A stretch of 63,010 nucleotides of DNA, counting the filler, from Asterionella formosa (taxonomy: Eukaryota): the NCBI GenBank assembly GCA_002256025.1. It is 7 parts of 7 records of this genome, joined end to end, with 100 filler letters (N's around TTAATTAATTAA, not from the genome) between each part and the next. Parts side by side here need not be neighbours in the genome. Positions count along the whole stretch, not along the records: positions 27,085 to 35,999 come from NKIB01011462.1; 6 more parts are not named here. One strand, given 5' to 3'. Positions 5,271 to 54,115 of the stretch are shown in pieces. Below the pieces are notes generated by a model, which saw only the letters and a list, made by a program, of their open reading frames with translations, did no database searches and had not been told where the DNA came from. Every line of letters begins with the position of its first letter. The first letter of the stretch is position 1. The translations under genes and the position numbers were made by a program.

Positions 5271-6166
5271 TGTTCAACGTTGTTACTCCGGCTATAATGA
5301 GCCGGATGATATAAGCTGTTTCGGAAGACCGATAGTTTGAAATGAATGATCAATGGTTATAAACCTATGATCAGTAAGTGTGAGATAGACATGGGTCTAT
5401 CTATGATTGTATGTTTCTAGAAATGCAAACAGCATTTGGAGAATAGTTTGTTTGTATATTCAAACCGATCAACCTAAACTAGTTTAGTAACTCACACTAA
5501 GAATAAAGAAACGAAAGAGAAATAAATTTCTCTATCTATAGCCTTCTTTGTCTAACGATATAGATCTATCTTAAAAGGTAATAATTTATAACACAGCTGT
5601 AGTAGCAAATATGACATACAGTCACACTATGATTCATGAAAAATACACGACAAAGCTAGTAAATTCTGTTTCCACTATACTGTTCCTACTTTTGTATAGA
5701 AAACAACTCACCTGTTTACTGTAGCAGTCGTACATAGTCTCCAATGAATCCAAATAGACAGGCCGTATGCCTTTAAAGGTTGTTTTTAGATCCGTAGTGG
5801 TCTTAAAAGTTACCGCCATGGTCGTTAGAAAGTCACTAGCTTTGTCATGATAATTGATTTTCGGGGAATCAATCAATTTTGACCAGTGATAACCATGTAC
5901 GTGTCCTAAAAAGTACTACATATAGGGTTATATTGACAAGCCTCATCAAAAAACTCGGGGAAACTAGCAAAACAAGTTTTAGCTTTGACAACGGTTTTTG
6001 GAATTTTTTGACTATGGGAATTGTTGCGTGTGGTAGAGAGCACTCGCTTCTTTGTTGATTTCATTAAGTACCATGACTTTCTTCTAGATTTTCCGAGAAG
6101 TCAGTTGACAAAGGAAACCTGCATTCATTTTGTCAGCCATATACACCAGTTAGAACCATAGCTAGG

Positions 6167-6200
6167 TACTCCCTCTGCCCGGAAACACTTGCATCGATTT
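6167..6200 (+). mobile_element. Possible Stowaway/mariner-like terminus (left end, TA-CTCCCTCTGCCCGGAAACACTTG)
   Basis: Resembles Stowaway-type TIR after a TA; it faces away from the 1383-1393 end, so the two cannot bound one element. Confidence 0.3.
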
Positions 6201-8940: not shown

Positions 8941-9040
8941 NNNNNNNNNNNNNNNNNNNNNNNNNNNNNNNNNNNNNNNNNNNNTTAATTAATTAANNNN
9001 NNNNNNNNNNNNNNNNNNNNNNNNNNNNNNNNNNNNNNNN
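8941..9040. other. Artificial scaffold spacer N44-TTAATTAATTAA-N44
   Basis: Exactly 100 nt with a six-frame-stop linker; identical spacers recur about every 9 kb. Confidence 0.98.
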
Positions 9041-17963: not shown

Positions 17964-18063
17964 NNNNNNNNNNNNNNNNNNNNNNNNNNNNNNNNNNNNN
18001 NNNNNNNTTAATTAATTAANNNNNNNNNNNNNNNNNNNNNNNNNNNNNNNNNNNNNNNNNNNN
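17964..18063. other. Artificial scaffold spacer
   Basis: N44-TTAATTAATTAA-N44. Confidence 0.98.
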
Positions 18064-18963
18064 CAGCCACACTTGAACCAGACGTATTAGATGTACTGAA
18101 TACTGGTTGGTAAAATCAGTACCAGGTACCGGTACTACCGGTAGTACATCCTGTCTTCCATCATGATGAACCAAGATAATGTACTACCGGGTAGTCTAAC
18201 TGGTGCTCCGAGTACCAGTACCTGGGAGTACCTGGTACCGGAATACATGGACTTTTCCCAAAAAGGGTTGAAAAAGAGAAAACTATTCGTAAATTCAGCT
18301 GCCCATTGGCATTTGCACCACTATTACTTAGAAAAACCAAAATTGCACCATCAGACTACCCATATATAGAATCCGTGCTACTGCCTGCACTACCGTAGTG
18401 ATATTTTCTACATAGGATCACGATCAGATTCATATAAGATATGTATTTTGTAGTACTAGCCAACGGCCGTAGGCTACCCTGTACATACATGTAATGGGAC
18501 ATACCTGTACTGATAAAATATTGCAAGCATTCTGTATCATAGCATACCGTATATAGGTTACTAAGGCCCCGTCTTACGGTGCCCGAATTACGAAGATTCA
18601 GTCGCCCGGATACCTGTTGGGCGTTGAATCTTCGTATTTTTGTCCCTTACGGGCTAAATAACTCGCAAATCCCCCCCGATTACGAAGATTAATCTTTGTT
18701 TGCCCGAATATTTCGAGGGTCATCCCCGATGTTGACCCAATCTTCGTAGTTTCTTGAACAATCTTCGTTTCCCGAAGATTAATCTTCGGGCAAACGAAGA
18801 TTGTCTCCACCAATCAGAATGGCGGAAACAATTTATAATCGTCATCACATATACTGATGATATAGTATTCGATACTTCGATACTTCTATTGTAGTATTAT
18901 TGTCATTATTATTACCGTAGATATTATTAATATAATAATTCTTACTTTTAATATTTTTGTTTT

Positions 18964-20433
18964 ATGATAATAATTTGTAACATGACGACTCCGCCAATGC
19001 TATCATCAACCTTCCTGGCACATTATCAACAGTGTGTGCAGCCATGGAAGCAACAATGGTTGTCATGGCAACTACCAGCAGCCTTGCCAGCTGCGTTGCG
19101 AAATGAGCTGGTTTCTCAGTTCCATTTGGAAGCTCAATCTGAAAGAGGGAATCAGCAATCGCCGTCCAACAGCAATTGCCATTCAACAACATCTGCTAAG
19201 CGAAAAAGAAAGAAACGACCTCTGGTGTCAAGGGAAGAGTCATGTTGGTGGAAGAAGTTCCTAACAAACGAAAAGCGCATCTTACAATTGGACATTAGCA
19301 CATGGGAAGCAAGACTCTTTCGCAAAATTTTTCGTCTTCCATTCGACATATTCTTGAAACTGTATGATATGACAATATCTAATGGTTGGTATGATCCACA
19401 CAGGAAAGATTGCACCAATCTTCTGTGCAACAAGGACCTTGAGTTGCTCCTCCTGGGTGTTCTCTACACTCTAGCAACTGGTGCTTCCCATTTGTATGTG
19501 TATATTCAAACTGACATCTCTAAAGAGGTACACCGAAAATTTTTCATTCACTGGACTTCAAAGTTTGCAGAAAAGAAGGATGAATATGTATACATAGTGA
19601 GAGAGGAAGAGGAAGATGATGACCAACTGCAACGAATTCTAAATGATTACAGTTCCTTTGGGCTTCCAGGTTGTATAGGCTCAGTCGATTGTGTGCACAT
19701 TGTATGGAATCGATGTCCTGCCTACCAGAAGAATATATTTAAAGGTTCCAAGGGGTATCCCTCAGTTGTTTTTGAGGTGGTTTCTGATCACAGAAGAAAG
19801 ATTTTATCAATCAGCTACCTACACCCAGGAACAAGAAATGACAAACACATAGTCAAGTTTGATGCTGCTGTTTCCAATCTACACGATAGAAATTTGTTTC
19901 TTGGCAGGCAAGAGTGGAATGTGCTCACTGTTGAGTCTTCTATTACTTGTAAAGGCTACTATTTCATTTGTGATGGAGGGTACCTACGATGGCCAGTGTT
20001 GATTTGTCCAATTAAATACGGCAATGAACATGGAAAAGAAAGGGCATGGGGTATGATGGTGGAGTCAGTTCGAAAAGATATTGAATGTACTTTTGGGATA
20101 TTGAAAATTCGATGGTTATTTCTTAAGAACTGGAACAACTTGTCTCGACCTGAGCATATCGAAAATGCGTTCACATCATGCTGTATGCTCCATAACATTC
20201 TATTAGAAAGCGATGGTTACCTTGACTGTGAAAGTTCTGACACACAGCATATTGCGCATACTGTGCAAGGTGACTGCATGGAATTGCATGTTATTTCACA
20301 CCGCAACTTCTTGAATGAAACAGTGGCTGGGGGTAAACAAAGTCAATGGTGGAATAGAGTTCAACTACTTGTTGATCATTATGACGAATTTCGTAAAAGA
20401 TGTAACAAGAAGCAAGATAGCAAGATAGCTTAA
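18964..20433 (+). CDS. PIF/Harbinger (Plant_tran-type) DDE transposase
   Basis: Open 489 aa ORF with GLPGCIGSVDCVH, KGYPSVVFEVV, GTRNDK, ICDGGYLRWP and ESVRKDIECTFGILK; catalytic D-D-E present. Confidence 0.92.
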   Translation: MIIICNMTTPPMLSSTFLAHYQQCVQPWKQQWLSWQLPAALPAALRNELVSQFHLEAQSERGNQQSPSNSNCHSTTSAKRKRKKRPLVSREESCWWKKFLTNEKRILQLDISTWEARLFRKIFRLPFDIFLKLYDMTISNGWYDPHRKDCTNLLCNKDLELLLLGVLYTLATGASHLYVYIQTDISKEVHRKFFIHWTSKFAEKKDEYVYIVREEEEDDDQLQRILNDYSSFGLPGCIGSVDCVHIVWNRCPAYQKNIFKGSKGYPSVVFEVVSDHRRKILSISYLHPGTRNDKHIVKFDAAVSNLHDRNLFLGRQEWNVLTVESSITCKGYYFICDGGYLRWPVLICPIKYGNEHGKERAWGMMVESVRKDIECTFGILKIRWLFLKNWNNLSRPEHIENAFTSCCMLHNILLESDGYLDCESSDTQHIAHTVQGDCMELHVISHRNFLNETVAGGKQSQWWNRVQLLVDHYDEFRKRCNKKQDSKIA

Positions 20434-26500: not shown

Positions 26501-26733
26501 CGTCGTATCAAACCTTTTCATAGGTAAAAGGTTTTCCCTCAAGTGTGGGAGAGTGAACAATCCTGCACATCGATACAGATGTATAAAGGGTTAGGGTTAT
26601 ATCAAATATATCAGAACTCGACTACCGGTAACACCTATTGTATACTTTGATGTCCACTTGGGAAGCAAGTTGTACATAAGATTAATTAGATCATATATTC
26701 AATAAATAATACTACTTCTAGTTAGATACTTCA
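23536..26733 (+). mobile_element. Degenerate Ty3/gypsy LTR retrotransposon (gag, protease remnant, RT, RNase H, integrase C-terminus, PPT, 3' LTR)
   Basis: gag CPVHPEGTHTWGNC knuckle; RT motifs WASPTFII, DFRELN, YPLPRI, YLRLPMG, YIDD; RNase [11 protein letters not shown]...[12 protein letters not shown]; integrase end INIRRIKPF; many stops and frameshifts; no 5' LTR seen. Confidence 0.9.
26554..26733 (+). repeat. Gypsy 3' LTR (180 bp, TGAA...TTCA)
   Basis: Follows purine tract GTGGGAGAG; homologous to 31869-32059 with the same boundaries. Confidence 0.85.
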
Positions 26734-26984: not shown

Positions 26985-27084
26985 NNNNNNNNNNNNNNNN
27001 NNNNNNNNNNNNNNNNNNNNNNNNNNNNTTAATTAATTAANNNNNNNNNNNNNNNNNNNNNNNNNNNNNNNNNNNNNNNNNNNN
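26985..27084. other. Artificial scaffold spacer
   Basis: N44-TTAATTAATTAA-N44. Confidence 0.98.
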
Positions 27085-27993
27085 GGGGGGGGCGGGCGTG
27101 GTTGGCTGTGAAATTACACCAGGAGTGGAAGCAGTATTGATAGTGGGAGGGGAAGGTAGCATGGACCTCGTAGAGGTTGATGTATCCCGTGTAGTATCAA
27201 GTTGTATCGTAAGTAGGTGAGTACTGACTGAAGTGGTGTCCGATCTCAGTTTCCGTGGTGATGTATAATTACCGATATTTTTAGGGCGATTATAAGCGAT
27301 TATCAACCTTTGGATGGTACATTGATTTCCGGAGAAGTTCCGTAGTGTGGTAAGAATTGGTTCTTTTCCCGGGGAAAATATAGTGTCTCTGAAAATTTGT
27401 TGAATATGAGATGATGGAGGGTTGTTCGGATGGAATGGCATGTGGAGGAACACACATTGTTCTGTGTGTGTGTCCGTTCTTTGAGTGGCCGTGTTGGTTT
27501 TGTTCGATTTGTTAACACATAGCTGTTTGATGTATGTATTAAAGATGGGTATAAGGGTTTTAGCCAAATAACCTTGGACCTGTAGGCGATTGTAGAAAGA
27601 ATGGATTGCAGTTTTGAAATGTGTGTCGACCGTTGTTAAATGGTAAATCCGGTGAATCATGCCAGCAATAAGACCACGAAGGACACCAGGAGGGTGTGCA
27701 CTATGTTGTGGTATATAGAGATAGGGATTCATAGATTTTTCGAATAGTGTTGTATCAATAGAACGGGTATGTTTATTGATAGAGATTGTGAGATCCAGGA
27801 AAGTTGTTGATAATCGTCGTGGTTCTGCATTCCATTTAAGTATGCCAAAATTATTCATCAAGCTGATAAACGAGTTGTGTGATTTTTCATCCTCGATATA
27901 GGTAGTTGATGTAGGGACCCAGATTATAAAGCAATCATCAATATACCTTCTGTAGAAGGATATTTGTGAAAACGTTGGGATGGTTTGTATCTC
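27085..27993 (-). mobile_element. Penelope-like element (PLE) copy A: 5'-truncated reverse transcriptase, no GIY-YIG endonuclease seen
   Basis: Open frame from 27993 reads EIQTIPTFSQISFYRRYIDDCFIIW...FLDLTISI...TLFEKSMNPYLYIPQHSAHPPGVLRGLIAG...IIAYNRPKNIGNYTSPRKL, typical PLE RT core and thumb, followed by an S/T/P-rich tail rather than an endonuclease. Confidence 0.88.
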
Positions 27994-28021
27994 TTAGGGT
28001 TAGGGTTAGGGTTAGGTTAGG
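27994..28021 (+). repeat. Telomeric repeat tract (TTAGGG)3(TTAGG)2
   Basis: Directly read; lies exactly at the 5'-truncation point of PLE copy A and the 3' end of PLE copy B. Confidence 0.92.
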
Positions 28022-28601
28022 TGTATGGGCTACAATGACTATTATCCAAGTGACAATGAGGTGACTACTTAAGTTGCCAAAAAGTAATGAGACTAATGTT
28101 TACTTTTCGCCTGAAGGGGCTTCATCAGTTGGCTTGGATCTGTAGTCTTGTAGTACGTGAGTCCTGGTGCGTGCGGGGGAGGGGGCGGCAGACGTGGTTG
28201 GCTATGAAAATGCACTGGGAGCGGAGGCAGTATTGATAATAAAGAAGGAGGGTAGTATGGACCATGTAGAGGTTGACGTATTCCGTTCGGTATCAAGTTT
28301 TGTTGTAAGTAGGTGAGTACTGACTAACGTGGTTTTCGATCTCAGTTTCCGTGGTGACGTATAATTACCGATGTTTTTGGGGCGGTTATATGCAATTATC
28401 AGCCTTTGGATAGTGCATTGATTACCAGAGTAATTCCGTAGGGAGGTAAGTGGTGGTTCTTTCTTCGGGGAATATATGGTGTCTCTGAAAATTCGTTGTA
28501 TCTGAGATGATGGAGGGTTGTTCGGATGAAATGGCATGTGTAGAAATACACATTGTTCTGTTTTGGTATCCGAACTTTTAATGGCCGTGGTGGGTGTGTC
28601 C
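28022..28601 (-). mobile_element. PLE copy B: 3' end (RT C-terminus, hammerhead, 3' terminus)
   Basis: Homologous to copy A (EQCVFLHMPFHPNNPPSS.IQ.IFRDTI...CTIQRLIIAYNRPKNIGNYTSPRKLRS) with many third-position differences; TAG at 28202-28204 where copy A has CAG. Confidence 0.85.
28076..28133 (-). ncRNA. Type I hammerhead ribozyme
   Basis: Minus strand: GCCAA-CUGAUGA-A-GCC(CCUUCA)GGC-GAA-A-AGUAA(ACAUUAGUCUCA)UUACU-U-U-UUGGC; core nucleotides and stems I, II and III are all present; cleavage triplet UUU. Confidence 0.82.
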
Positions 28602-29975
28602 GAAGACTCAACAGTGAGCACATTCCACTCTTGCCTGCCAAGAAACGAATTTCTATCGTGTAGATTGGAAACAGCTGCATCAAACTTGACTATGTGTTTG
28701 TCATTTCTTGTTCCTGGTTGTAGGTAGCAGATTGATAAAATCTTTTTTCTGTGATCAGAAGCCACCTCAAAAACAACTGAAGGATACCCCTTGGAACCTT
28801 TAAATAAATTCTTCTGGTAGGCAGGACATCGATTCCATCCAATGTGCACACAATCGACTGAGCCTATACAACCTGGAAGCCCAATGGAACTGTAATCATT
28901 TAGAATTTGTTGCAGTTGGTTGTCATCTTCCTCTTCCTCTCTCAGTATGTATGCATATTCATCCTTCTTTTCTGCAAACTTTGAAGTCCAGTGAATGAAA
29001 ATTTTTCGGTGTACTTCTTTAGAGATGTCAGTTTGAATATACACATACAAATGGGAAGCACCGGTTGCTAGAGTTTAGAGAACACCAAGGAGGAGCAACT
29101 CAAGGTCCTTGCACAGAAGATTGGTGCAATCTTTCCTGTGCGGATCATACCAACCATTAGATATTGTCATATCATACAGTTTCAAGAATATGTCGAATGG
29201 AAGACCAAATTTTTTTTCGAAAGAGTCTTGCTTCCCATGTGTTAATGTCCCATTGTAAGATGCGCTTTTCGTTTGTTAGGAACTTTTTTCACCAACATGA
29301 CTCTTCCCTTGACACCAGAGGTCGTTTCTTTCTTTTTCGCTTAGCAGATGTTCTTGGATGGCAATTGCTGTTGGACGGCGATTGCTGATTCCCTCTTTCA
29401 GATTGAGCTTCCAAATGGAACTGAGAAACCAGCTCATTTCGCAACGCAGCTGGAGAGGCTGCTGGTGGTTGCCATGACAACCATTGTTGCTTCCATGGCT
29501 GCACACACTGTTGATAATGTGCCAGGAAGGTTGACAATAGCGTTGGCGGAGTCGTCATGTTACAAATTATTATCATAAAACAAAAATATTAAAAGTAAGA
29601 ATTATTGTATTTATAATATCTATGGTAATAATATTGACAATAATACTACAATAGAAGTATCGAAGTATCGAATACTTTATCATCAGTATATGTGATTATG
29701 ATTATATATTGTTTCCGCCATTCTGATTGGTGGAGACAATCTTCGTTTGCCCAAAGATTAATCTTCAGGAAACGAAGATTGTTCAAGAAAATAAAAAGAT
29801 TGGGTCAATATTGGGGATGACCCTCGAAATTTTCGGGCAAACGAAGATTAATCTTCGTGATCGGGGGGGATTTGCGAGTTATTTAGCCCGTAAGGGACGA
29901 AAATACGAAGATTGAACACCCAACAGGTATCTGGGTGACTGAATCTTCGTAATTCGGGCACCGTAAGACGGGGCT
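28602..29975 (-). mobile_element. Second, truncated and disrupted copy of the Harbinger element (left TIR plus 5' part of transposase)
   Basis: Closely similar to 18565-19940 in inverse orientation; TIR ends at 29975 followed by TTA; TGG>TGA at 29289-29291, further stop/frameshift; breaks off at 28602 into PLE sequence. Confidence 0.92.
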
Positions 29976-30444
29976 TTAATATGGCAATTATTTCCGTCTT
30001 GTGAAGAATGAGAGAGTTCTTTATCTTGCAAGAAAAACGCGACTTCATGTTGTTATCGGCGATCTCAATTTTCGTTGTCATTATTAGTGTTATTACTTTA
30101 CTTCTTTTACGATTGTATTTTTCATGTCATTCTCAATACAGATAGCAAGTAGCAAAGCGTCGTTCTCTATTTTCGTGGAGATAATTCGTATTTTCGTCAT
30201 GGTCAAGGTTGCAACAACATAATGAAGGATTCTCCAGCTGCTCACTGCCACTACCTGTCGTCTGATGTGTTTTCTATGTACAAAAGAATCACAAAATGGT
30301 AGCTAAATATTTATACACTAGTGCCTACGAGAAGAAAAAGAATTATAGCACGTTACTTTGTCTATAACAAGAAATTATTAGGTGCTTGGTTCCACCTCAA
30401 GAAAAATGTATAGGGGGGTCCAGGACAATGAAAAATACGGTATT

Positions 30445-30592
30445 TCAAACGGAATCATTGATATTCAAAATTAGCGCATAAAAATTCTTAGTTCCAGGGA
30501 ATTTCGGCAACCCAAAGAATATATCAAACGGAATCATTGATATTAAAAATTAGCGCATAAAAGTTCTTAGTTCCAGGGAATTTCGGCAACCC
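30445..30592. repeat. Tandem duplication, 79-bp period
   Basis: TCAAACGGAATCATTGATATT.AAAATTAGCGCATAAAA.TTCTTAGTTCCAGGGAATTTCGGCAACCC at 30445 and 30524. Confidence 0.9.
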
Positions 30593-30904
30593 TAAGCAAT
30601 ATTTTAATTTTTGCCTAGGGATTAAAATCCAGGAACCTCAAGGTTGCGGCCCCGGCTTAACCCTAGTTCGGAGAAAATATCTTTAGGGTTGTAAAACGGC
30701 GTGGAACAGGGAGTTTCCTACTATGAATTCTCATGATTCGAGTGTCCATTTGAATATTTGAATTAAATAGGAATCGGGGCCAGATTGATGGAGTTCCATT
30801 TAAAAAAAATATGATATTTAAACGTTTATACTTTTTCTACGTTACTGAATGTAGAGATAATTTAGCTCAATGGCAAAACACTTATATAAATTAGGAGTAT
30901 GCCA

Positions 30905-32059
30905 ACATAAATGCTACAATTGCTACACATTTTTATCACCCTACATTAAAAGCAAGAGTGGAACATATTGTAAGCATATGTGAAGCATGTCAATGTTCAA
31001 AATTATCTGGTACTGGTTTTGGTGAACTTCCACCCAGGAATGCATTGTTATTACCATGGTCAGAAGTCGCAGTAGATCTAATTGGTCCATGGAAGATAAC
31101 AGTGGCTGCTCAAGCAATTGAATTTCGTGCTCTAACTTGTATTGACACAGTCACCAATTTAGCAGAAATTTCACGTATCAACAATAAAACATCAGAATAT
31201 ATTGCGATGAAATTTGAAAATGATTGATTAGCCAGATATCCCCGTCCAGAACGTTGTATACATGACAATGGAGGTGAATTAACTGGTGTTCCTTTCTTAC
31301 ACATGTTAGTATTGAATGGAATTAAAGATGTGACTACTACAGTAAAGAATCTACAAGCAAATGCTATCTGTGAACATTTACATCAATCTATCAGCAATAG
31401 TCGACAAGTTATGTTAAAGGCTCATCCTCCAAAGAATGAATTTCAAGCCCAAAATATTGTGGATACATGTTTTGCAGCTGCGTCATATGCAGCTCGAGCT
31501 ACTATTCATAGTATAGTACGTATTTCACCAGGAGCATGGGTTTTTCATCGTGATATGATATTAAATATTCCTTTGATTACAGATTTACAATTAATACATC
31601 AACGTCGACAAGTGATAATTGACGAACGTTTACGTCGAGTTAATTTTCGTCGTCGATCTCATGATTACAAAGTGGGTGACGAGATTTTAATATTATTGGA
31701 TAATCCTACTACTTTGGATGATCGTGGACGAGGTCCTTGTACTATTATTCAAGTACATGCCAATGGTACAATTACTTTTCAATGCACTATGCACATTACA
31801 GAACGAATTAATATTCGTCGTATCAAACCTTTTCATAGGTAAAAGGTTTTCCCTCAAGTGTGGGAGAGTGAGCAATCCTGCACATCGATACAGATGTTTA
31901 TGGGGATGTGATGTTTATGGGGTTAGGGTTATATCAAATATATCGGAGCTCGACTAACACCTATTGTAAACTCTAATGTCAACTTGGGAAACAAGTTGTA
32001 TATAAGATTAATTAGCTCATATATTCAACAAATACTACTACTTCTAGTTAGATACTTCA
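30905..32059 (+). mobile_element. Gypsy relic: integrase, PPT and 3' LTR (same family as 23536-26733)
   Basis: HFYHP...CEACQ zinc-binding part, VAVDLIGPW, IHDNGGEL, NAICEHLH; in-frame TGA at 31225-31227; LTR 31869-32059. Confidence 0.9.
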
Positions 32060-32085
32060 CCTGGTACTGGCATGATAGACTTCAT

Positions 32086-32427
32086 TCCTAACCCTAACCC
32101 TATCTTCATGACTTGATTCTTCATGACTTACTACATGCTATCCTCATGACTTGACTATTCATGATTTACTTTTATATTTACTATGACTATGCTAAATATT
32201 TGATTCTTCATGACTTTCTACATACTATTCATGGATTACTTCTATATTTACTATGACTATGCTCAATATTTGATTCTTCATGACTTTCAACATACTACCG
32301 GTATCTTCATTACTTGATTCTTCATGACTTCCTATGTGTTATATCTTCATGACTGTCTTCTTCATGACTTACTACATATAACCGGGTGGTTTGGGTGTGA
32401 TACCATATATGATTTAGGGTAAGGGTT
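32086..32427. repeat. TTCATGACTT-based minisatellite bracketed by telomere-like motifs
   Basis: About a dozen (C)TTCATGACTT variants; CCTAACCCTAACCCTA at the left edge and TTTAGGGTAAGGGTT at the right edge. Confidence 0.75.
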
Positions 32428-32788
32428 GCATCAGACATTCGAATACCGTTGGACATGTCGGGCCCATAAGGCTTTTATCAACACAATCACCATTATGGGT
32501 AGTGACATTTTGTCATCGGCGTTTCTATCAATGTAGACCCTGATATATAAAACTGCACAAGAATAATCAAAACACAAATTGCTCTTTTCCAGCAGTGCTC
32601 ACATTTCTCCTTATCTGCAGTGGATGTTTCCTGATCCCAGGCATTGGGATTGACTGCGATTTGAGGAGTTAAGTATTATATACTTAGGTGTCGGAAGTAA
32701 ATTCAATTCTTAAAACACGACAAAAATTTGCAAAATCTAGTTTGTGGAAGGAATCAACAACAACCACAGCAAAAAATAGCATCATATC

Positions 32789-34480
32789 ATGAATACAGAG
32801 AATGGCCAGAACATGCAGGAAGACGTTGAACGAGCTGACAATCGTCCAACTACTGATGAAAGCGAGCGCGAGCCCTACATTCTTATTGATGATTTGTTGC
32901 CTTGCATCCAATCTTCCATTCGTCAGCCTGATGTATTTACTCCACCAAACCCAACCACTCTGTCTAGAACTTTATCTTGGCAGAAGCGTGGGGGTGTTAA
33001 TCAAACTTCCCACTCCAGCCCAGATATGTTGCCAGACAGCAATGATGTTGTTGTAGAGGAAGGGTCCTTTCCTGAACAGAAACTCAGAATCTCGGGGAGG
33101 AATAAAACCAAGAAAACAGGCTCTGTTTCAAGAGTGAAGAAACAACCTGGAGTGAATTGCGACAGTGATTTTGCTAAGTTGCACTCTGAGGAAGCAAAAC
33201 TTGAATTTGAAAGTGCTGATACCCTGTCTCATGCGCCTCCAGTTAATGTTGGGATGCCAGAAATTTATCCTGGAGCATTTCCTCAAGGCAGTACTTCGGC
33301 TCCTGCACGATATCTTTCGACTTCTATGGAGAGTACTACTACTAGAACCCCGATTAGTGATGGTGGTCTGGTTGTTGAACTAGAAGCCCAAATTGTTGAA
33401 GAAACTGAAGTTTTTCAAGCATTTGCCGTACAAGAAGTGACAAAACCAGCTCAAGGAGGAGAAAGCTTGTCACAACCTAAAGGTAAAAAGAAATGGATCA
33501 GTGCAATTTCAACTGTGGTCATGATAGTCACAATTGTGACAGCTGTTCTTGTTGTCAAGTATCGGAAACCATCCAATAATGAGGTTATGACAACAAGTGC
33601 TCCAACAGTGGCTGCTTCTCCTGCTCCCAGTGTTCAGGAAGTAGAATGGGTCCAACTTGGGCAGACTTTGACTGGAGTAGCTAGCTATGATCAGTTTGGC
33701 ACTTCGGTAGCACTATCTGGGAATGGAACCATCATGGCCAGCGGAGCAGTAGTATCTGATTACAATCAAACTGTTGACTCTGGTCAGGTTCATGTTTTTG
33801 TGTGGGATGGTGCCCGATGGCAAAATTTTGGGTCTCCGATTGGCGGTGTAGCAGCAGAGGATCATTTTGGTACTTCTGTGTCACTCTCCTTTGATGGGCT
33901 AACATTGGCCATAGGTGCAGACTTGAATAACAATGAGGCAGGTTATGTTCAAGTATTTAGTTTTAATGGTACAGATTGGCAGCAAGTTGGTCAAGATTTG
34001 AATGGAACTGCTGGTGAAAAGTTGGGATTTTCCGTAGCACTCGCTGGCAATGGTACCATATTAGCTGCTGGAGCACCTTTAAATGACTACAATGGCACTG
34101 ACTCTGGTGCTGTTCATGTTTATGTCTTAATTGACAACCAATGGAGTCAAATGGGGAACACCATTTTTGGAGAGGTATCATATGATAAATTTGGGATAAA
34201 GGTTGATATTTCTTTTGATGGTCTTACTTTGGTTGCTGGTGCACCAATGAATGAAGAAAATGATTTTGTTGGTGCTGGAAAACTTCGAGTATTTCATTTT
34301 GATGGTCAAGACTGGCAAAAAGTTGGTCAAGATGTAGATGGCAAGTCTACTTCTGATAGGTTTGGGTCTTCTGTGTCAATTTCTGGAGATGGTACCATCA
34401 TTGTTGGTGGAGCGCCTTTTAGCAACAATGGTGGAAGTGAAATTGGCAATGTTCGTATATTTTCATTTGACAAACATTAA
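32789..34480 (+). CDS. Type II membrane protein with FG-GAP (integrin alpha-like beta-propeller) repeats
   Basis: 563 aa; disordered N-terminus with PGAF motif, TM WISAISTVVMIVTIVTAVLVV, then five repeats of W.Q.G..L.G...D.FG.SV.LS.DG..L..GAP...G.V.VF. Confidence 0.88.
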   Translation: MNTENGQNMQEDVERADNRPTTDESEREPYILIDDLLPCIQSSIRQPDVFTPPNPTTLSRTLSWQKRGGVNQTSHSSPDMLPDSNDVVVEEGSFPEQKLRISGRNKTKKTGSVSRVKKQPGVNCDSDFAKLHSEEAKLEFESADTLSHAPPVNVGMPEIYPGAFPQGSTSAPARYLSTSMESTTTRTPISDGGLVVELEAQIVEETEVFQAFAVQEVTKPAQGGESLSQPKGKKKWISAISTVVMIVTIVTAVLVVKYRKPSNNEVMTTSAPTVAASPAPSVQEVEWVQLGQTLTGVASYDQFGTSVALSGNGTIMASGAVVSDYNQTVDSGQVHVFVWDGARWQNFGSPIGGVAAEDHFGTSVSLSFDGLTLAIGADLNNNEAGYVQVFSFNGTDWQQVGQDLNGTAGEKLGFSVALAGNGTILAAGAPLNDYNGTDSGAVHVYVLIDNQWSQMGNTIFGEVSYDKFGIKVDISFDGLTLVAGAPMNEENDFVGAGKLRVFHFDGQDWQKVGQDVDGKSTSDRFGSSVSISGDGTIIVGGAPFSNNGGSEIGNVRIFSFDKH

Positions 34481-34954
34481 AAAAAGCTTAAGCATATTTA
34501 TTCTACAAAAGAATACTAGCTATGTATAATATCTCATTTGTACTCCCCTATTTCTGGTGGGCATGTCTTTCATTGTGCTACCTGTTGACCTGACCACCTT
34601 TTGAGATAGATGATTTCCTTAGTGAAGGCCAATCTTAACAGAGATTCAAAATATTTTTTGTTGTATCTTCAGAAAAAAATGAATCTTTACAGAGGTACAT
34701 TTCACAAATATATCTCTGTATTTACTGAGTAGATTTTTCTATGCACAAAGTAGGTTGCTTGACATTGGCAAGTTGAAGTTAGCAGTTAGCTATTTCATTT
34801 CAGTAGTTAGCAAATGAAGTCAGCAGTCAGAGAATATTTCAAATTTTCAGCAAATCAAGTCAGCAGTGAGCAAGAAGTAGTCCGAGTTCAGCAAGTTAAA
34901 GTTGGTAAACAGCTATTCTGCTATAAAAGGTGGCAGCGCTTTTCCGTTTGAGGG

Positions 34955-35999
34955 GTGATGATTGCTGATGCAGGAGGTATCACTACGATTCTGTCTGCAA
35001 TGAAGATTCATTCCTCAAATGCTACTGTGCAAGAAAAAGGTTGTGGAGTACTTTGTTGCTTAGCTTTTAATGACAACAACGAGGTGATGATTGCTGAAGC
35101 AGGAGGTATCACTACAATTCTATCTGCGATGTATAACCATTTCTCCAATCTTAATGTGCAATACTGTGGTTGTGCAGCACTTATGAAGTTGGCTACTAAT
35201 AATGAAAGCATCAAGCTGATAATTGCCAATGCTGGTGGAGAAGATGCAATTAAATCTGCTATTCGAAATCACTCATCCAATGCTGGTGTCTGGGAAAAAG
35301 GTCATGAAGCACTTCTTATGATTCAACCAATTTCAACAACATCCAAGAGAGCGCATGTTCCTTCCTTAACCACTCCAACACCAAGCAGTAGCAATTCAAC
35401 TGATCTCATTTCTGAAGGTCAATCGAAAATGAAGGAAGCTATCGACAATGTGAAATCAAGACCAATCGAGCTTTCTGCTGAATTCATTACTTATTGTACA
35501 AACAATTTTGCTGAAGACAGAAAACTTGGTCAAGGAGCTTTTGGTGCTGTTTACAAAGGCCAAGATGACAATCGGGATTTTGCTGTTAAATGTATTCTAT
35601 TCAATATTGCTGTTGAGAAAAATAAGGTGGAGGAAGTTACCAAGGGTTTTAAAAGAGAATTGCAGGTGAGCTCATTTGTGGTATCAAATATTGCATTTCG
35701 TTTCAAGTCTTTATGTTTCTCATTCTACTGTCATACTGTTTCAGGCCTTGAAGAGGTTCCGACACCCCAATATTGTAACTTTGTATGGCTATCATTTGTC
35801 CCCTAATTCGCTTTATCAATACCTTGTGTTTGAGTATGCATCCAATGGTTCACTTGAGACATTCTATAGGAGTGAACAAAAAAGGGCAGGTCTCTCAAGT
35901 AAGATCTGACTTCGAATCATGTTCGAAATCTTTTGTGCCATCCACTACCTTCATACTGGTACAAAGGACAACCTTGGTCTGTTTCATCGTGATATCAAG
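34955..35999 (+). pseudogene. Armadillo-repeat + IRAK/Pelle-like Ser/Thr kinase fragment; intron 35666-35744; premature stop; cut off by scaffold end
   Basis: ARM repeats (IAEAGGITTILSAM..H.SN..VQ..GC.AL..LA); TNNFAEDRKLGQGAFGAVYKG, FAVK, HPNIVTLYGY, LVFEYASNGSL, HYLH, FHRDIK; GT..AG intron restores frame; TGA at 35907-35909 interrupts the kinase. Confidence 0.8.
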
Positions 36000-36099
36000 N
36001 NNNNNNNNNNNNNNNNNNNNNNNNNNNNNNNNNNNNNNNNNNNTTAATTAATTAANNNNNNNNNNNNNNNNNNNNNNNNNNNNNNNNNNNNNNNNNNNN
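36000..36099. other. Artificial scaffold spacer
   Basis: N44-TTAATTAATTAA-N44. Confidence 0.98.
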
Positions 36100-45010: not shown

Positions 45011-45110
45011 NNNNNNNNNNNNNNNNNNNNNNNNNNNNNNNNNNNNNNNNNNNNTTAATTAATTAANNNNNNNNNNNNNNNNNNNNNNNNNNNNNNNNNN
45101 NNNNNNNNNN
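45011..45110. other. Artificial scaffold spacer
   Basis: N44-TTAATTAATTAA-N44. Confidence 0.98.
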
Positions 45111-54015: not shown

Positions 54016-54115
54016 NNNNNNNNNNNNNNNNNNNNNNNNNNNNNNNNNNNNNNNNNNNNTTAATTAATTAANNNNNNNNNNNNNNNNNNNNNNNNNNNNN
54101 NNNNNNNNNNNNNNN
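54016..54115. other. Artificial scaffold spacer
   Basis: N44-TTAATTAATTAA-N44. Confidence 0.98.

Follow-up and report, generated by a model that had tools for sequence, protein, structure and literature searches.

A Coprina-type, endonuclease-less Penelope-like element in Asterionella formosa: probable remnant of end-primed retrotransposition

Drosophila HeT-A, TART and TAHRE are non-LTR retroelements arrayed head to tail on chromosome ends, where they replace telomerase, and among the Penelope-like elements (PLEs) Athena is the clade marked by a frameshift. For endonuclease-less PLEs, both an end-primed mechanism and a telomere-bracketed layout have been described (PMC6431247, PMC3846280, PMC13159263). 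The Coprina clade comprises members from fungi, Selaginella and the diatom Phaeodactylum tricornutum (Pt1), together with Coprina-1_Alen (PMC13159263). In Naiad and Chlamys, as presented in PMC8557442, the nuclease is N-terminal, the motif reads DKA and the canonical hammerhead is lacking; the legend to Fig. 1 of that paper depicts the PLE ORF1 as separated from the reverse transcriptase (RT) by a frameshift. Fungal and protist elements, a Thalassiosira oceanica variant included, have been documented to carry hammerheads of type I whose helix III is long (PMC4209133). For several diatoms the telomere repeat is reported as TTAGGG (PMC3622300, PMC12044402), and, as context only, telomerase activity went undetected in Phaeodactylum according to PMC3622300.

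Two element copies and the tract between them

The window, that is, the whole stretch of A. formosa DNA analysed here, is 63,010 nucleotides long. The features considered are given below.

8941-9040, 17964-18063, 26985-27084, 36000-36099, 45011-45110 and 54016-54115: linker positions in the window
26985-27084, no strand: artificial linker (N44, 12-nt spacer TTAATTAATTAA, N44), left border of contig 27085-35999
27085-27993, minus: copy A, 5'-truncated RT ORF of an endonuclease-less PLE, from RT motif C to the thumb and C-terminal domain
27945-27934, minus: YIDD of copy A, an RT motif
27994-28021, plus: telomere-type tract (TTAGGG)3(TTAGG)2, G-rich on the cDNA strand
28022-28603, minus: copy B, 3' fragment (582 nt) belonging to a second subfamily, with ORF end, 3' UTR, hammerhead and terminal motif
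28042-28047, minus: GGATAA motif, which relatives also show downstream of their hammerheads
28076-28133, minus: type I hammerhead ribozyme inside copy B
28204-28202, minus: stop codon of the copy B ORF
28602-29975, minus: PIF/Harbinger-type DNA transposon fragment, broken inside the transposase at the B junction
32087-32100, opposite strand: second short telomere-like run, 20 nt past a gypsy-type LTR
32780-34480, plus: FG-GAP repeat ORF, open, 566 codons, on the telomere-ward side of the chain
34952-35999, plus: ARM-repeat/kinase-like gene, probably intron-bearing and truncated at the contig end, with weak Pfam scores

A script run on the window found the identical N44-TTAATTAATTAA-N44 linker six times at a spacing of about 9 kb, from which the window was read as a probable concatenation of seven unrelated contigs of about 9 kb each; features on the two sides of a linker are thus not neighbours. 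Since position 27085 is a contig edge, the 3' end of copy A falls outside the assembled sequence. The sequence facts that the original prediction gave for 27085-28601 held, and its description needed amendment in that A's 3' end lies beyond this edge.

Copy A (27085-27993, minus) stays open in one frame over 303 codons and is 91% identical to residues 316-618 of the 624-residue same-family protein P0248. It starts at P0248 residue 316, 16 residues before YIDD, and leaves the contig edge about six codons ahead of the family stop; judged by copy B, its missing 3' end would extend about 160 nt past that edge. At A's truncation the 28-nt tract, in which two of the five units are variant, opens with a complete TTAGGG unit, foreign letters being absent at both borders of the tract, and no microhomology was found between the tract and A's expected continuation. 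The 11-mer TTAGGGTTAGG has two sites in the window (four overlapping matches) against an expected 0.01. The claim that A is cut just upstream of YIDD (16 codons) and capped directly by an exact (TTAGGG)3(TTAGG)2 on the cDNA strand was thereby borne out; such a capped 5' truncation, G-rich on the cDNA strand, was seen in copy A only.

On the other side of the tract, a diverged copy B in the same orientation as A was confirmed, with 82.3% nucleotide identity to A over 423 nt. Between the two copies dS was 0.63 and dN/dS 0.09 over 72 conserved codons, and dN/dS was 0.31 over 132 codons. The dN/dS of 0.09 indicates that A and B are true, separately selected subfamilies, in agreement with the proposal that a second subfamily had extended the chain. 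B-type proteins occur in other samples (P0124, P0125), and A-type copies also carry B's 3' end (joint 28151->27090 in run X5; P0243). The tract begins 20 nt past GGATAA, within the range of 16-66 nt at which the four resolved 3' junctions of relatives follow this motif, and the 3' end of B is therefore considered complete.

The 5' end of B carries no telomere cap and joins a broken PIF/Harbinger-type transposon through a 2-nt GA microhomology. A stretch of a further contig of the window (18559-19940) shows 95% identity to this fragment. Across the join between B and the transposon, 28395-28628 is matched with one difference by a contig of another study, whose far side covers 27 letters, below the 31 letters that we required for bridging support by a read or contig. 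Beyond the chain the contig continues for over 7 kb and holds open host-like genes; the site is thus internal now, as the prediction of a later internalisation had it.

Further observations concern mostly the same flank. Summed depth over 29990-30200 was very high in all four runs, pointing to a further, very abundant repeat right after the end of the transposon fragment. RNA runs, by contrast with no particular region, contained small shares only (0.09-0.15). The relatives listed for the FG-GAP repeat ORF (32780-34480) were mostly bacterial secreted proteins, barring one 81% match. The telomere-like run at 32087-32100 heads an array of degenerate repeats (32094-32382), and no Penelope-like sequence was found beside it. 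Two gypsy-type LTR copies each contain GGGTTAGGGTT (26588-26597 and 31920-31929), and no Penelope-like element adjoins these sites.

Endonuclease-less protein family and hammerhead ribozyme

The protein search returned 176 longer and 146 similar-length relatives, the best 120 of each being examined; the few named relatives among the matches listed were diatom proteins (Chaetoceros, Cyclotella and an entry abbreviated 'Aulac'). The cluster of the closest match contains three members (P0248, P0251 and P0255, 624 aa each, 91% identical to A), in which DKN, the RT core, the thumb and a disordered tail are followed by no further domain before the stop at 624 aa. The structure model of P0248 (pLDDT 89) had telomerases as its top four PDB folds (E 7e-9 to 3e-8), with LINE-1 RT only slightly behind, and Atlas neighbours of the family carry PF28514/PF26215. 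In a quick, midpoint-rooted 39-row tree the family nests with a Chaetoceros tenuissimus protein (SH-aLRT 98). Pfam gave no match for copies A and B or P0248, the PDB sequence search gave none, and no relatives were found among viral contigs; the one hammerhead-like pattern match there (L103) was dropped, having no RT match. The PLE features present were thus a telomerase-related RT with the N-terminal DK(G/N) motif as DKN, core, thumb and YIDD, accompanied by a type I hammerhead near the 3' end or pseudo-LTR and a tandem arrangement.

The absence of a GIY-YIG domain after the RT thumb was confirmed at copies A and B. By itself this is an insufficient test, because Naiad and Chlamys carry the nuclease in front, as PMC8557442 presents them. 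GIY-YIG-like patterns matched none of 398 related proteins. Of these, 329 extend to the profile end, with tails of up to 182 aa (median 7), and 176 to the profile start (longest head 104). By Pfam, no GIY-YIG was found in 28 and 12 proteins of whole or circular related units; the profile search that had been proposed for full-length copies was in this form negative in these relatives, as it was in P0248. The same tests did flag the distant locus L087, with a pattern match and a Pfam E of 0.046, which is below the cut-off and serves as a weak positive control. In addition, the motif was DKN and not DKA in 233 of 254 calls, and no N-terminal or separate endonuclease was found in relatives at 34-48% identity. 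As near-full-length members end after the thumb and the GIY-YIG motif is found in 0/398, the family is an endonuclease-less PLE, its upstream region being judged from relatives only. The classification originally proposed thus stands on the 624-aa members ending after the thumb, the negative motif and Pfam searches, and a fold nearest to telomerase.

The predicted ribozyme in copy B consists of helix I (5 bp), the CUGAUGA core, helix II (3 bp), GAAA and helix III (5 bp), and its predicted cut lies between 28081 and 28080. The type I descriptor matched once in the window, as opposed to 0.017 times per shuffled window (60 shuffles). Sense-strand matches occurred in 41 of 84 related loci, and no locus had one on the opposite strand. 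Thirty related motifs showed covariation, with 46 double changes versus 18 in shuffled alignments (0/500); a slide by one column still left 34. A model built from the relatives' motifs alone found the motif of B with an E of 1.4e-6. No hammerhead family match was obtained in Rfam, and the hammerhead was not the lowest-energy structure in free folding (z -2.1). Taken together, structure and covariation indicate that the hammerhead at 28133-28076 is real. Position 17 was U in the descriptor matches listed, including 28081 in the window; U17 makes an unusual hammerhead cleavage triplet. The predicted cut falls 59 nt before the tract, suggesting that the template of B ran past the cut. The ribozyme-bearing 3' end had been put forward as possibly undescribed; this is not supported, as protist type I hammerheads are already reported in PMC4209133.

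Related loci and the telomere link

The comparison set of 84 related loci (34-48% identity, 68 families) was drawn from metagenomes and stray bin contigs; L085-L088, being distant or fragmentary, were excluded from the 84-locus counts. Related units run in the order ORF1, overlapping RT ORF, 3' UTR and hammerhead, measure about 3.3-7 kb and lack accessory ORFs; whole or circular units contain ORF1 and the RT ORF only. Overlapping ends were seen in 11 of 88 loci. Among 28 informative cases, 26 have ORF1 of the next unit after the hammerhead region; 16 more were too short. ORF1 of the relatives is all-helical with no nuclease match, and its structural search gave no match at E<=0.001.

Of 56 ORF1/RT overlaps, 53 place the RT in the -1 frame. 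A correctly framed slippery heptamer was found in 45 of the 56, and the two wrong frames gave 30 and 24. Counted by frame, A AAA AAC with GGGG after it occurred 12, 0 and 0 times, the loci not being independent in either count. A slippery heptamer, short spacer and G-rich stem would thus make up a candidate -1 frameshift signal in L001-L084 (e.g. L003:532, L013:1053).

Some further features of these loci were recorded. Many families have a simple repeat (CAA, GA, GT, TTG or ATC) between the RT stop and the hammerhead (L010-L030, L046, L048), which in L016, L017, L022 and L029 is internal to the element and not part of the target. Six ORFs end in NPNPNP (P0069, P0141, P0260, P0261, P0393, P0468), a sequence that telomere-complement repeats could encode. 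The eukaryotic Penelope-like contigs of L079-L084 and L088 sit in prokaryote genome bins, that is, they are bin contamination; none of five prokaryote bins holding stray element contigs had a TTAGGG tract, which is uninformative, and a bacterial promoter scan was empty, its bacterial models not being relevant here.

No telomeric run longer than 12 nt was present in the 84 related loci: with 14 telomere motifs the longest run was 12 nt (six rows, two of the TTAGGG type). Telomeric contig ends were likewise absent among them, and all four resolved 3' junctions in relatives were non-telomeric. In L077 a 3' end is joined to a 5'-truncated copy without a spacer, the geometry being otherwise that of the window. 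Within 60 nt past the terminal motif, telomere complement was not enriched in 40 related 3' regions (at least 8 nt in 1/40; mean 4.5 vs 4.3 shuffled, P=0.12), one locus, L080, having a 12-nt complement 35 nt past the motif. The suggestion that the variant TTAGG units are element-encoded thus gained no support from these regions.

Since the related loci come from other species and from collapsed short-read contigs, these results weaken the telomere reading in this host and stop short of refuting it. For the expected association of other copies with telomeric repeats, the comparison thus covers 84 loci of other species in collapsed short-read contigs, none with a run above 12 nt; the present copy is internal. 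As for a retroelement-assisted telomere system, we found no evidence of host benefit, and most relatives are without telomeric junctions; a host-serving role in diatom telomere maintenance is unsupported by the present results.

Origin of the chain and relation to known systems

We regard the locus as probably the relic of end-primed retrotransposition by a Coprina-type endonuclease-less PLE, with the full chain being copy A, telomerase, copy B and rejoining. The copies are arranged head to tail around a tract whose G-rich strand is the cDNA strand; B is complete at its 3' end and A is cut at its 5' end. By analogy with the model set out in PMC3846280, PMC6431247 and PMC13159263, from which the order of events and the action of telomerase are adopted, A would have been reverse-transcribed onto an exposed DNA 3' end, either a native telomere or a briefly healed break, and would have stopped within the RT core. 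Telomerase would then have added a few TTAGGG units at A's end, and RNA of the second subfamily may have been primed on this short G-rich end. The template of B, still with 59 nt beyond the ribozyme cut, would have been an uncut, tandem or circular RNA, and its synthesis presumably halted after 582 nt. Finally, the uncapped end of B would have been joined to DNA of the broken transposon via 2 nt of shared sequence, and the chain would thereby have become internal. Of the predicted successive rounds of terminal retrotransposition and capping, the polarity, the capped A and the complete 3' end of B agree with the locus; the uncapped B joined to a broken transposon does not. A fossil chromosome end is plausible, and would look no different from an internal break that had been healed for a short time or from a chain that had been copied in.

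The latter would apply if the chain had formed at an end elsewhere and been copied here whole, by read-through RNA or by template switching in break repair, in which case the locus would not be an end in situ. The hammerhead region of B, equivalent to the next unit's 5' leader, could then promote transcription across the tract and on through A to the 3' end of A, and the 26 of 28 informative cases in which that region precedes the next ORF1 are consistent with this. The far end of B, with its microhomology join into a broken transposon, also resembles an insertion into a break, and the summed depth over B in run X1 (5,700-6,200 vs about 800-1,100 per listed contig) hints at several B-like copies, while giving no copy number. 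No second copy of the joint of A, tract and B was seen, with methods that would not have revealed one. We consider such copying rather unlikely. It appears improbable that the tract was made here by something other than telomerase, as an element-encoded annealing tag of subfamily B or as an interstitial telomere-like repeat or repair patch that was already present and served for landing. The variant TTAGG units adjoining B, the 12-nt complement in L080, the NPNPNP ending of a sister family's ORF and more short telomere-like runs on the same contig would fit that origin; the start of the tract on a complete TTAGGG unit right where A is truncated, the absence of foreign letters at both its borders and the lack of clade-wide enrichment (1/40 with at least 8 nt; P=0.12) speak against it.

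A 28-nt tract is shorter than usual assembly words, and a join across it normally needs spanning reads. This argues against an assembly chimera in which the repeat served to fuse a telomere-capped end of A with the end of a separate B, as does the other-study contig over the join of B to the transposon (28395-28628, one difference), albeit with only 27 letters past it. The assembly is of short contigs, the family is multi-copy and the junction of A, tract and B is known from the assembled contig alone; we nevertheless judge a chimera very improbable. An endonuclease encoded elsewhere in the element, N-terminally as in Naiad/Chlamys or in a separate frame, which merely targets telomere-like repeats, is hardly credible. 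The window copies are 5'-truncated and the ORF1 evidence comes from relatives, not from DNA upstream of the family's own RT ORF, which would fit this reading; the all-helical ORF1 of relatives without nuclease match, the predominance of DKN over DKA (233/254), the canonical hammerheads and the ability of the same tests to flag GIY-YIG in L087 all oppose it. Beside the end-primed relic that we favour, we tentatively entertain, as a possible though doubtful reading, that a large, little-described and probably diatom clade (at least 68 families in 84 loci), built of helical ORF1, -1 frameshift, RT and U17 hammerhead, spreads mostly without telomeres through break priming and tandem arrays, and that this locus was a break that telomerase began to heal, that two subfamilies extended and that was then re-joined. 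Should the clade-wide lack of telomeric junctions be upheld in long-read genomes, the locus would gain in importance, because endonuclease-less PLEs have been described as largely confined to chromosome ends; the spread of many families via internal breaks would make these telomerase relatives testable as break-repair parasites.

Compared with known systems, the Drosophila arrays appear similar in their head-to-tail addition to ends, and differ in that telomere repeats persist here. Athena shares the ORF1/RT frameshift with the relatives (-1 frame in 53 of 56 overlaps); it is described as rotifer-specific, and the units found here measure about 3.3-7 kb and have no accessory ORFs. With Athena and Terminon of bdelloid rotifers the locus has in common the head-to-tail, 5'-truncated copies with short telomeric stretches between them and the 3' hammerhead (PMC6431247), whereas an element-encoded telomere complement beside the ribozyme is unsupported in the 40 related 3' regions. 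Naiad and Chlamys resemble the family in their related RT and in having no endonuclease after the thumb, and differ by the N-terminal GIY-YIG, DKA in place of DKN and the lack of canonical hammerheads, as given in PMC8557442.

Closest is Coprina, an assignment suggested by features and not by a tree with named Coprina elements. Our search of the literature found no description of this family, and the supplements of PMC8557442 and PMC4209133 may list diatom elements. Unlike in Coprina, the chain is internal with an uncapped outer end, and related families are mostly without telomeric junctions in short-read contigs. Like Coprina, the family has no endonuclease and carries the DKN motif, RT and thumb; its ORF points away from the G-rich end, telomeric repeats lie between the element and its neighbour, and the hammerhead is of type I, with a long helix III in the elements of PMC4209133. 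The relatives' coiled-coil-like ORF1 plus RT ORF likewise match Coprina-1_Alen as described in PMC13159263. We do not claim the architecture as unpublished: the telomere-linked Coprina-type arrangement is already known, and what the present locus contributes is a further family and one clean junction within a class whose presence in diatoms has been reported before.
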